Below, piece after piece: positions 48,001-51,000 of a stretch of 64,000 bases of DNA (positions are counted from its first letter, which is position 1; each line of letters starts with the position of its first letter). The position numbers were made by a program. Location of the stretch: the sequence record KP682392.1; one strand, written 5' to 3'. Origin of the DNA: Escherichia phage PA52.

Positions 48001-51000
48001 GGTCCTGGTTATTAATACATCAGTATATGATTAGTTGAAGCGAGTCTTTAATATTCATTTAAAATGTCTAAAAAGATGTATTATTAAAAAGTTTAGCGTG
48101 TTATCTGAATACAGGATATCTTAAATGAAGAGTATAGCAACACTGGTTGTGTGTGCAATCTCCGGGATTGCCTGTGTAAATTTATCTGCACATGCAGCAG
48201 AAGGAGAGCATACAATTTCTCTGGGGTATGCGCACTTTCAGTTTCCGGGACTGAAGGATTTTGTAAAGGATGCGACTGCTCATAACAGGGAGACTTTCAG
48301 TCATTTCGTCAACAGAAACTACTTTTCTTCATTGGGCGAATATACAGATGGTCGGGTCAGTGGATATGAAGGCAAGGATAAAAATCCACAGGGCATTAAT
48401 ATCAGGTATCGCTACGAGATAACGGATGATTTTGGCGTTATCACCTCTTTTACATGGACGCGTTCTCTCACTAACTCACAGACATTTATTGATGTGCAGT
48501 CAGCCGATCATACCAGGAAGATTAAGAATCCGGCAGCTTCTGCCAGAACGGATATCAGGGCGAATTACTGGAGTCTGTTAGCGGGGCCTTCATGGCGGGT
48601 TAATCAGTACATGAGTTTATATGCGATGGCAGGGATGGGCGTTGCTAAAGTTAGCGCTGACCTGAAAATTAAGGACAATATTAACAGTAGTGGCGGATTT
48701 TCTGAAAGCAACAGCACGAAAAAAACCTCCCTTGCGTGGGCTGCAGGTGCACAGTTTAACCTGAATGAGAGTGTTACACTGGATGTGGCTTACGAAGGTT
48801 CCGGCTCTGGCGACTGGCGCACGAGTGGCGTTACTGCTGGCATTGGCCTGAAATTCTGACCTGTATCCGGTAACCGTTTACTACCCGCTGTGATGGCGGG
48901 TTTTTTATTGCCCGTACAGGGCAAAAACCGTAAATTATGCGTGGGTGCCTTTCGGCTGATGGCTGGAGGGTGAACCTGAAGGCCTGATGTGGAAAGGCCC
49001 CGAGTCAACTTAACGTTAACCCGAGGCCCTAACACTTCGTACCTTAAGCAAGTAGAAGGTTAGCGCCTCTCTGTAAAAGGAGTCAAGCGCTATGTCGCAA
49101 AAATCGCTTATCACCGTCACAATTTGCATGACGGTTATCTTCACCATCTGGATGTTGCACGGTTCACTGTGTGAGTTCCGGCTGAATTTGTGGGGAGCGG
49201 AGTTTGCGGCGTTCTTACAGTGTAAGCAGTAGGAAAACCGCGACGGGGACGAGAGTCCCCGTCAACTGGTTGCTGAGGTTCAGCCGATATGGCACCCGTT
49301 TCAGGTGAGAGAATGAACGATAAAATTCTCTGGTATATGCAGCGTGTTGTGAGAAATTCCCGCAACCCTGAATTTATGAATGAAGTTAAAGACGCCTGCC
49401 TTAAAAAGCAGGCGTTTTGTTTTGAGGCACCTGATGGCTTTTTGGTGCTGCGTTCTGTGCTCAGTGCTGATGGTATCCCTTATGTTCTGGTGTTGCTGGG
49501 CGTGTGTACGGGGAGTAACAGCGTTGAGCGTTACCTGCCGGAGGTGAAGACATTAACCCATCTGGCTGGCGGACGCTGGGCTGAGTTCCATACGGCAAGG
49601 CGGGGATTTATCCGGCTGGGAAAACGACTGGGCTTTGAGCGAATGCCGGATGATGAGGATGGCTTCATGGTGTTCAGGATAGCGGTCTGACTGCTACAGT
49701 TTTCATCATTGTGTTTAAACCAACATTGTAATTCACATTCTGACCCTGCTCCGGCAGGGTTTTTTGTTATCCAGGGGGCCATTATGGGTGGAAGTAAAGG
49801 CGGTGGTGATACCAAAGTAAAACCAACAGCAGCGCAAATAGCACAGGAAGAAGTGGCCTGGAAAGGGTGGCAGGATTACAAAAATATCCTCCGCCCGGCT
49901 GAAGATAACTTCATGGAAAAGGTCGATGACCTGAACAGTGAGCAGCAGTACGACAATATTGCTGGCACCACAAATCTGGGGTATCAGAAACAGTTTGGCG
50001 AAGCACGGAAGGAGCTTGCGGGTAATCTTGCTCAGTCCGGCGTTGACCCATCCAGTGGTCGTTTTAATGCGGTAATGAATGCGAACCAGAGTGACCAGGT
50101 AACCGGGCAGATTGACACAACCACACGGGGGCAGGTATCGCAGGCAGATAAGTATGTTGCCGGGCTACAGGATGTTGCTGCTCTCGGTTCTGGTCAGAAG
50201 GCGGATGCGTTACAGAGTTTTAACTCTCTGGCAGACAGCAGTCTGGCAAAAGCTAAATCGGATGCACAGGCGGCGTTTACGAAACAGCAGGGGCGAGCCT
50301 CTCTTGTTGGCGCTGGTCTGGGTGCGGCAGGTGCATATGCGATGCATAAGGCTGGCGGTAGCGGAGGAAGTGGCGGTGCTAAAACACCTGGCACCGGCGC
50401 TAATGCCATTCAGCATCAGGCTCAGAACTGGAGACTGTAATTATGGAGTATGGCAAATACGAAACTCTCGCAAGGGCTGGTTATTCAGGAGCAGACCGCC
50501 CACAGGGTGACTGGCAGACGTCAGCAGCGCTGACACGCCAACAATACGACGACTGGCGAACCAGATATTTGCCCCGCGTGGCAAGGCTGGCTGACCTTGG
50601 GGAGAACAACAGTCTGATGAATGCACAGCTTGCACGGGTGGGAGGCCTTGCCACTTCCAGTCTCCGTACAGCGCAGATGGCGCAGGATAACCAGATGGCG
50701 AGATACGGGGTAAACCGCCCGGATAATCCCGACAGTAATACGCTGGGGTTACGTAATGCCCTGGCAATTGCTGGCGCGAAAAATGGTATCCGTGAAGCCG
50801 AACAGGATCGCCAGATGAATATTCTGACGGGGGCTTCTGCACCGGCAAGACAGAAACTGAGTGTTGGCGGCCAACTGGTGGCAGCGTAAGGGGGCAATAT
50901 GGGATACGGTTTACTGGATATTGCAAATCAGTCGCGGCGTGAGGCATTACAGGGAATAAGTGACGCAGACAGACGACGTGAAGAAATTGAGGCTGCGAAC

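Follow-up and report, generated by a model that had tools for sequence, protein, structure and literature searches.

Positions 48908 to 49297 of the 64,000-nucleotide stretch of Escherichia phage PA52 analyzed here (KP682392.1; hereafter, the window) were found to hold what is, with a probability of roughly 0.85, a self-contained type I toxin-antitoxin module of the hok/sok type, inserted as a moron between the terminator of lom and the gene L0129. The locus is an ordinary member of the best-known type I toxin-antitoxin family, and its toxin gene is already known: it is annotated by PGAP and PHROGs and catalogued as Hok cluster 72, and its peptide has been taken through a toxicity assay. New here are the map of RNA elements, the boundaries of the module, the absence of mok, the distinction of the locus from the hokW-sokW of the same phage, and the recognition of L0129 as a phage backbone gene.

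The toxin gene of the module is the following.

49092 to 49232, plus strand: hok-family toxin coding sequence (CDS), an ATG-initiated open reading frame (ORF) of 46 amino acids encoding MSQKSLITVTICMTVIFTIWMLHGSLCEFRLNLWGAEFAAFLQCKQ, supported by profile matches.

This ORF, present exactly where the original prediction had placed a 46-codon frame, matches Pfam HOK_GEF (PF01848) over residues 8 to 44 with 33.2 bits (gathering score, 22; E = 4e-8) and PHROG_251, "MokW-like host killing," with an E value of 2.8e-24. The ORF has each of the seven residues for which conservation in Hok exceeds 80% (M1, C12, T14, L26, C27, E28, and E37); they correspond, with spacing unchanged, to positions M1, C16, T18, L30, C31, E32, and E41 of a logo built on 1264 Hok peptides (bioRxiv 10.1101/2025.08.07.668861), and C44 corresponds to logo position 48. 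The product is therefore a Hok protein in the usual sense of a peptide of about 50 amino acids with an N-terminal transmembrane helix and the conserved residues, and the two profiles and the seven residues bear out the Hok/Gef motif that had been proposed from the sequence. The best-scoring named equivalog is HokA (NCBIfam NF007290), which aligns over residues 6 to 45 (E = 9e-10); its cut-off is not reached (38.4 versus 89 bits), and the protein is accordingly not a HokA orthologue.

The gene had been called unannotated, which is true of older records only: neither the original 933W record nor the list of Sp5 ORFs given by Mondal et al. (2016) includes it, while RefSeq/PGAP names it a Hok/Gef family protein (WP_000078907.1), and several GenBank phage records label it "MokW-like host killing," "host toxic membrane protein," or "small toxic polypeptide." Fourteen Hok/Gef genes had already been counted in O157 Sakai (Fozo et al. 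2010). An identical peptide is 72_1589 of Hok cluster 72 in the study of Escalera-Maurer et al. (bioRxiv 10.1101/2025.08.07.668861), where it was cloned under an arabinose promoter (plasmid LRP157) for an overexpression toxicity test. There, 42 of 45 tested Hok homologues were toxic, and the three named nontoxic ones are sequences other than 72_1589. A second member of the cluster, 72_1621, the variant of P2-like prophages (L007 and L010), was likewise cloned for the assay. By design, that study concerned the coding sequence, with Sok, Mok, and mRNA structure outside its scope, and the DNA tested there differs from the window at synonymous sites.

The reading frame is 46 amino acids long in 57 of 58 distinct copies and 45 in the remaining one. 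Copies with an identical peptide carry up to 8 synonymous differences (dN = 0; dS up to 0.35), and dN/dS is 0.2 to 0.6 for distant copies. These values show the sequence of a Hok/Gef family member evolving under purifying selection, and the gene is, as far as sequence can tell, alive. Conservation of the small ORF in related prophages, on which the original prediction had staked itself, was thus observed.

The boundaries of the module were derived from its occurrence elsewhere. The region from 48860 to 49790 is 100% identical to 933W (AF125520, 45428 to 46358), to VT2-Sakai/Sp5, and to dozens of other Stx phages, as well as to many O157 chromosomes, which identifies the window as an Stx2 prophage of the 933W/Sp5 type. 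In a census of 5426 complete Escherichia coli genomes, homologous hok modules were found in 1750, located behind lom in Stx phages, behind ogr at the ends of P2-like prophages near serS, and behind gpJ in lambda-like prophages. Similarity to the copies in foreign contexts spans approximately 48931 to 49297; in the alignment it starts at the −35 hexamer (ATTGCC) and stops directly after GGCACCC. The original prediction had taken as its unit an island bounded by two intrinsic terminators, both of which were recovered within 1 to 2 nucleotides (nt) of the proposed positions, each with a T-run.

48883 to 48908, plus strand: intrinsic terminator after lom (hairpin at 48883 to 48901 plus T-run), with an 8-bp stem containing 5 GC pairs followed by TTTTTTATT.

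49742 to 49767, plus strand: intrinsic terminator after L0129 (hairpin at 49742 to 49761 plus T-run), found in the terminator scan.

That island does not hold as a unit. Because similarity to the P2-like and lambda-like copies is confined to the smaller segment, we take the mobile unit to be the approximately 390 bp from 48908 to 49297 and not the 886-bp terminator-to-terminator block. The T-run of the lom terminator abuts the −35 hexamer of the predicted hok promoter, and this terminator is a flank outside the module.

Several of the copies are instructive in themselves. Beside serS, one P2-like prophage carries two copies of the module in tandem at its end (L012, 1371 to 1511 and 1843 to 1983). 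Phages phi367 (L004, 1668 to 1808) and phi419 (L005, 1669 to 1809) keep the leader and 3′ region of the window around a coding variant that is 54% identical, which points to recombination inside an intact module with preservation of the RNA elements. In an IMG/VR copy (L037, 1352 to 1400), the 5′ tac region is replaced by unrelated sequence and the remainder is intact; this naturally truncated module should be without fold-back inhibition. In a related prophage of Salmonella, a Hok of another cluster (called as a 69-amino-acid ORF, an in-frame Mok-Hok extension) lies upstream of lom (L102, 2848 to 3057; L103, 258 to 467), and hok morons thus appear to insert repeatedly in the neighborhood of lom. 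In a scan of genome contigs, the subfamily was confined to four species representatives. Two of these, a Planococcaceae metagenome-assembled genome (L017) and a Vagococcus sp. (L019), are assemblies labeled as Firmicutes in which near-identical enterobacterial modules are probably contamination.

On the sense strand, the module contains the following elements, where tac, ucb, and fbi denote counterparts of the R1 elements and SD denotes the Shine-Dalgarno sequence.

48908 to 48936, plus strand: predicted hok promoter at the left module edge, with −35 TTGCCC (48908 to 48913), a 17-nt spacer, and −10 TAAATT (48931 to 48936).

48943 to 49297, plus strand: minimal full-length hok mRNA of 355 nt, a closed fold-back with a minimum free energy (MFE) of −153.7 kcal/mol (z = −6.3 versus shuffles).

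48943 to 48959, plus strand: tac-like 5′ element (GGGUGCC..CGGCUGA), pairing with fbi in the full-length mRNA and with 48989 to 49001 after 3′ truncation.

48989 to 49001, plus strand: ucb-like partner of tac in the truncated mRNA, GUGGAAAGGCCCC, from folding; 98.7% paired.

49023 to 49069, plus strand: Sok-target hairpin, formed in the truncated mRNA only, with loop CCUUAAGCA (49042 to 49050); 86.6% paired, with 2 pairs compensated.

49062 to 49091, plus strand: anti-SD hairpin pairing AGCGC-CUCU with GGAG (the SD, 49079 to 49082) and GCGCU; conserved helices.

49242 to 49263, plus strand: GC-rich 9-bp hairpin after the stop codon, GACGGGGAC-GAGA-GUCCCCGUC; 100% paired, with 4 covarying pairs.

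49266 to 49279, plus strand: 3′ segment masking the Sok-target loop in the full-length mRNA, with UA/CG, GC/AU, and AU/GC exchanges.

49280 to 49297, plus strand: fbi-like 3′ element (UCAGCCGA..GGCACCC) at the right module edge, from folding and from the end of intercontext similarity.

The predicted promoter would start transcription near G48943. Both of its hexamers are conserved where all other upstream sequence differs between contexts, and the −10 hexamer stays T-A-x-A-x-T among the copies (TAAATT, TAGATT, TACATT, and TACAGT). Assignment of this promoter and of the Sok promoter described below is based on conservation and on analogy with sokW.

In the full-length fold, the mRNA is closed by two tac-fbi helices, GGGUGCC/GGCACCC (48943 to 48949 with 49291 to 49297) and CGGCUGA/UCAGCCG (48952 to 48959 with 49280 to 49287). 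Inside this closure, 49041 to 49055 pairs with 49266 to 49279 (4 covarying pairs), and the AUG and first codons pair with 49196 to 49212 in the 3′ part of the CDS. The hairpin after the stop codon, which had been anticipated at 49241 to 49262 with an 8-bp stem, is real but lies one nucleotide further on and has 9 bp. Support for the fold was evaluated on an alignment of the 58 distinct copies, which are 75 to 100% identical. Standard pairs occupy 93% of the pair cells, versus approximately 40% when the partners are slid, and 19 pairs are changed on both sides, a number reached in 0 of 500 shuffles. Covariation is strongest in the long-range helix that masks 49041 to 49055 and in the hairpin after the stop codon. 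Pairing in the two tac-fbi helices stands at 97.7% and 87.9%; variation in them is slight across the family and is mostly of the G-U-compatible kind. The anti-SD helices are 100% and 93.5% paired, with changes that are solely G-U compatible, and the SD itself (AAGGAG) is conserved among the copies. The sense RNA of approximately 355 nt is thus shown to have a conserved, covariation-supported fold, and elements of the tac and fbi type, for which the original prediction had suggested folding the leader, were seen.

When the 3′ end is removed at any point from 49250 to 49270, MFE folding moves tac to 48989 to 49001 and converts 49023 to 49069 into a long hairpin that takes up the anti-SD strand. 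The predicted probability that GGAG is unpaired is approximately 0.01 in the full-length RNA and 0.13 to 0.55 in the truncated RNA, and it is at most 0.04 in truncated RNA in which 48992 to 49051 is blocked as a mimic of bound antisense RNA. The Rfam sok family (RF01794) matches 48943 to 49105 on the plus strand with 35.6 bits (E = 9e-6 in 2.5 kb, in E-value mode only).

A Sok-like antisense RNA had been expected opposite the leader, and a predicted minus-strand promoter and terminator do sit over it.

48991 to 49050, minus strand: predicted Sok-like antisense RNA of approximately 60 nt, in which a 5′ tail that complements the target loop precedes a 16-bp terminator hairpin and UUUCC.

49057 to 49086, minus strand: predicted Sok promoter, with −35 TTGACT (49086 to 49081), an 18-nt spacer, and −10 TAACCT (49062 to 49057).

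Folding strongly favors the minus-strand version of the terminator hairpin, at −32.5 kcal/mol (z = −5.6) against −17.2 kcal/mol (z = −1.6) for the plus-strand version, and the 60-nt predicted Sok alone folds to −27.3 kcal/mol. Its lower stem is conserved; several of the U-G pairs in it are C-A mismatches on the sense strand, and these are conserved as well. RNAalifold on the antisense alignment recovers the lower stem only, the upper stem being misaligned by indels. The predicted 5′ end is complementary to the loop of the target hairpin, as is that of Sok in R1. In the promoter region, AGGTTAGCGCCTC is invariant in the 58 copies, as is AGGTTAG, the complement of the Sok −10 hexamer (58/58). 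It is the same heptamer that was changed (TAGGTTAG to CCGGCTCG, primer YO-421) in the promoterless sokW construct of Takada et al. (2021, PMC8621323), and that construct lost antitoxin activity (PMC8621323).

The R1 hok/sok system described by Gerdes and co-workers is the paradigm of type I toxin-antitoxin systems, and the module shares much with it: a small membrane toxin that has one helix and the conserved Cys, Thr, LCE, and Glu residues; a stably folded mRNA in which 5′ tac and 3′ fbi form the closure, with a hairpin after the stop codon; and, as predicted here, a short antisense RNA whose promoter overlaps the hok start region and a refolding upon 3′ trimming that would create the antisense target hairpin. 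The toxin differs in length (46 versus 52 amino acids in R1), the module is prophage borne rather than plasmid borne, and its Stx-phage copies are without a terminator after fbi. A further difference is that there is no mok and hence no translational coupling, control being predicted to run through the anti-SD hairpin instead.

A mok reading frame was searched for in the window and none was found, since each of the three frames is interrupted ahead of the AUG (between 49030 and 49092) by the stop codons at 49045, 49053, 49061, and 49074. As a positive control, the same search applied to hokW yielded a mok of 70 codons. Nor is there a conserved upstream ORF in the family, as only 22 of the 58 homologues have any ORF reading into hok, and these have four different starts. 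In the absence of a mok frame, control must act on the hok SD directly.

By analogy with R1 hok/sok and from thermodynamic folding, we propose the following sequence of events. The weak hok promoter would supply a stable, translationally inert full-length mRNA, from which slow 3′ trimming would remove fbi. The tac element would then re-pair with 48989 to 49001, and 49023 to 49069 would snap into the target hairpin, so that the anti-SD strand is withdrawn and the SD exposed. An unstable antisense RNA of approximately 60 nt, made from a stronger minus-strand promoter (49050 to 48991), would bind the target hairpin, which lies 30 to 90 nt upstream of the start codon; this binding would release AGCGCCUCU to re-close on the hok SD and would probably trigger RNase III cleavage. 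Once Sok synthesis stops, through prophage loss or through disturbance of transcription on induction, Hok would be made and the inner membrane depolarized.

The 3′ end of the mRNA depends on context. In the copies outside Stx phages (L006, L010, L012, L014 to L016, and L018), every one has a canonical terminator approximately 25 to 60 nt downstream of GGCACCC, which in P2-like and lambda-like contexts falls within about 30 nt of fbi. The terminator sequences differ between contexts and are therefore placed outside the conserved module. In the Stx phages there is no terminator after fbi; L0129 starts 16 nt past it, and the hok transcript probably runs on into L0129, where the first terminator-like structure is met.

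49389 to 49424, plus strand: first terminator-like hairpin and U-run downstream of fbi, inside the L0129 CDS (−17.8 kcal/mol; z = −3.4).

This hairpin is nucleotide identical, including synonymous stem sites, in L0129 homologues of Salmonella, Pectobacterium, Yersinia, and Serratia that share only 50 to 69% protein identity, and it is weakened in L106 and absent in L107, the two most distant homologues. Because it is conserved in prophages with no hok upstream, it is not hok specific. It is a candidate for the 3′ end of the hok transcript in PA52, and it may act in the late operon as an attenuator or a conserved RNA element.

A number of points weigh against reading the locus as a hok/sok module that works in this way. 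The defining step of the R1 mechanism is missing, and its proposed replacement is a thermodynamic prediction. In PA52 there is no terminator after fbi to set the 3′ end from which the proposed processing would begin. The hok and Sok promoters each match 8 of 12 consensus positions and neither was called by the promoter scan, while the predicted antisense U-tract has only 3 U. The tac-ucb helix is almost invariant and so lends no covariation support to the active fold, and the pairing statistics are inflated, both by the kinship of the copies and by the use of test structures that come from the sequence of the window itself. The hok leader, at 35.6 bits, does not reach the gathering score of 59 for Rfam RF01794 (sok/CssrC), and a gathering search of the whole window reported sok at the hokW leader only. 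Finally, a literature search for the locus (WP_000078907, ECs1236/ECs1237, or mok-less hok) found no paper on it in the library searched, and no transcript data for either RNA.

The locus was also considered as the published hokW-sokW and this was rejected, as the primers of Takada et al. and the 51-amino-acid HokW map to 61.8 to 62.2 kb on the minus strand of the window.

61842 to 62218, minus strand: hokW-sokW, a separate paralogous module identified by primer matches and Rfam sok (113.5 bits), 58% identical to the module at 48908 to 49297.

The two modules share the tac-fbi closure and, as predicted features on the lom side, the Sok −10 complement AGGTTAG and the Sok terminator hairpin, and both leaders match Rfam sok (hokW, 113.5 bits; lom-side hok, 35.6 bits). 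They differ in the toxin, HokW having 51 amino acids (MKQQKAM...) and an in-frame upstream MokW extension whereas the lom-side Hok has 46 and no mok; in position, hokW-sokW lying on the opposite strand at the prophage end; and in that hokW-sokW has been characterized experimentally (PMC8621323) while the lom-side module is described here from its sequence. The two-helix closure of hokW has a second helix that differs entirely and is yet complementary (UUGAGG/CCUCAA versus CGGCUGA/UCAGCCG), and tac-fbi duplexes are predicted at −25.6 and −29.2 kcal/mol for cognate pairs and at −15.0 and −19.1 kcal/mol for crossed pairs. No relationship is seen between the 5′ recognition regions of sokW and of the predicted lom-side Sok, with noncognate duplexes much weaker than cognate ones, and cross-neutralization between the two is not expected. 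The phage is therefore best described as carrying two independent hok modules, an arrangement recorded for only 3.5% of hok-bearing phages (bioRxiv 10.1101/2025.08.07.668861). In the study of Takada et al., sokW RNA vanished after induction and HokW appeared at approximately 2 h in a RecA-dependent manner, and without hokW-sokW phage release was halved, with half the burst and a 40-min delay (PMC8621323). The deletion removed hokW-sokW only, so that the deletion strains still carried the lom-side module.

Downstream of the module lies a gene that the original prediction had noted correctly as an ORF of 125 amino acids.

49313 to 49690, plus strand: L0129/ECs1237 (Sp5 ORF75), 125 amino acids, with a GNAT fold; delimited by PHROG_610 and homologue lengths and placed by synteny.

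This ORF was listed as 49289 to 49690 (133 amino acids), but the ATG at 49313 is the better start, as PHROG_610 matches end to end (1 to 124 of 124) and homologues have 123 to 125 amino acids. Its substitutions are strongly biased to third codon positions (for example, 3/2/19), as befits what we judge to be a real gene. In prophages of Pectobacterium, Serratia, Yersinia, and others, the L0129 homologue overlaps the preceding tail-fiber gene by 4 nt and is followed by homologues of L0130 to L0133, with no lom or hok nearby; a Salmonella relative has the order hok (of a different Hok cluster), lom, L0129 homologue. The idea that L0129 is cargo of a hok island was rejected on this synteny. Instead, L0129 belongs by gene order to the late-gene backbone of these podoviruses and falls outside the module, and lom and hok are, from the same synteny, morons dropped between the tail-fiber gene and L0129. 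Deletion of L0129 in Sp5, which left fbi intact, was not among nine lethal deletions.

The genes around the small ORF are, in order, a J-like tail fiber, two small ORFs, lom (Pfam Ail_Lom, 113 bits), hok, L0129, and L0130 onward. Tail fiber, lom, hok module, and the genes from L0129 onward all lie on the plus strand in the orientation of the late genes. A scan for terminator-like hairpins gave 10 sites in 2.5 kb, versus 2.0 expected from shuffles. Elsewhere in the window, three 99.9 to 100% identical IS3-family elements of 1,310 bp were found on the minus strand (18692 to 20001, 25662 to 26972, and 44057 to 45367), each IS629-like and containing an ALIL frameshift pseudoknot. A late tail gene is divided by the third of them into 42837 to 44060 and 45380 to 45853, two genes upstream of ORF71 (a 422-amino-acid ORF at 45850 to 47118). 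Judged by size and position, the split gene appears to be the homologue of Sp5 ORF70, an essential gene, and the PA52 prophage is probably tail defective through this IS629 insertion. Rfam matches above the gathering score at 7898 to 7956, 17165 to 17363, and 23582 to 23841 comprise the lambda cIII thermoregulator, isrK and C4 antisense/a1b1 targets, STnc100, and, adjacent to the stx region, AsxR; a group of three tRNA genes occupies 21925 to 22173.

What the module does for the phage is a separate question from what it is. The classical role, killing of cells in which Sok synthesis stops, fits prophage addiction or abortive infection. As a defense or addiction moron, the module would kill cells that lose the prophage, or would abort infection when a lytic phage stops host transcription and Sok decays. 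A paper citing the original work states that R1 hok/sok reduces T4 plating; hok genes are approximately fourfold enriched in prophages (bioRxiv 10.1101/2025.08.07.668861); and the module occupies classic moron positions, next to lom and at prophage ends, having moved among P2-like, lambda-like, and Stx phages. Against this, PADLOC gave no matches, and the Hok survey reports that hok is not enriched near defense systems (bioRxiv 10.1101/2025.08.07.668861). We consider such a role possible but tentative.

A role in lysis seems to us rather doubtful for this module, although it has a precedent. Here, Q-antiterminated late transcription would read through the lom terminator, overrun the convergent Sok promoter, and deliver Hok late. 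The late genes that flank the module share its orientation, and in the Stx-phage context it lacks a terminator of its own. For its paralogue hokW-sokW, loss of sokW RNA and production of HokW were seen after mitomycin C, in strains whose ΔhokW-sokW derivatives still carried the lom-side module (PMC8621323). The case is nevertheless an argument by inference throughout. The same module stands behind P2 ogr at prophage ends with a terminator, which shows that late read-through is no general requirement; in a long late transcript, tac would be internal instead of sitting at a free 5′ end, and the folding would be unpredictable; and in this window IS629 lies upstream in the late operon. The more ambitious combined proposal, that this Hok subfamily works without Mok through an allosteric RNA switch built on the anti-SD strand and, in addition, that the Stx-phage module, fused transcriptionally to the GNAT-fold gene, is an overlooked contributor to lysis and phage release, is one that we hold to be speculative and on the whole unlikely; a terminatorless Stx-phage module would be in line with Q-antiterminated late transcription.

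It is improbable that the locus is a silent relic, by which is meant a hok locus in decay, deprived of mok and of its terminator, that goes entirely untranslated and persists only by hitchhiking with the prophage, in the manner of the inactivated chromosomal hok loci of E. coli K-12. In favor of a relic are the missing mok frame, the lack of a terminator after fbi in the Stx phages, the weakness of both promoters by consensus, and the degraded look of the prophage, with three IS629 copies, one of them splitting a tail gene. However, the ORF is intact in 57 of 58 copies, the closest of which differ synonymously only (dS up to 0.35), and conservation, with compensatory changes, extends to the SD AAGGAG and the regulatory helices. 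By far the most intact copies lack mok, which makes this the normal state of the family and no local lesion. Moreover, the identical peptide 72_1589 was in the toxicity test and is not among the three nontoxic ones (bioRxiv 10.1101/2025.08.07.668861). That the frame is an accidental ORF of the intergenic spacer separating two terminators, as its shortness (46 codons) and its omission from older annotations might suggest, is already refuted by profile matches above curated thresholds, by the presence of the module in 1750 genomes, and by purifying selection.

The preferred reading, a self-contained hok/sok-type module, means that Stx2 phages of the 933W/Sp5 type carry two unrelated hok/sok modules, of which only hokW-sokW has been studied. 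Because every strain in that study still had the lom-side module, the share of Hok in lysis and in the release of Stx phages may be incompletely assessed, and if the lom-side module does contribute to lysis, the published ΔhokW-sokW phenotypes would underestimate the role of Hok in Stx-phage release. The subfamily is, in addition, a natural example of a mok-less hok locus and suits the testing of antisense control through an anti-SD switch. Neither point alters the classification of the locus within a known type I toxin-antitoxin family.

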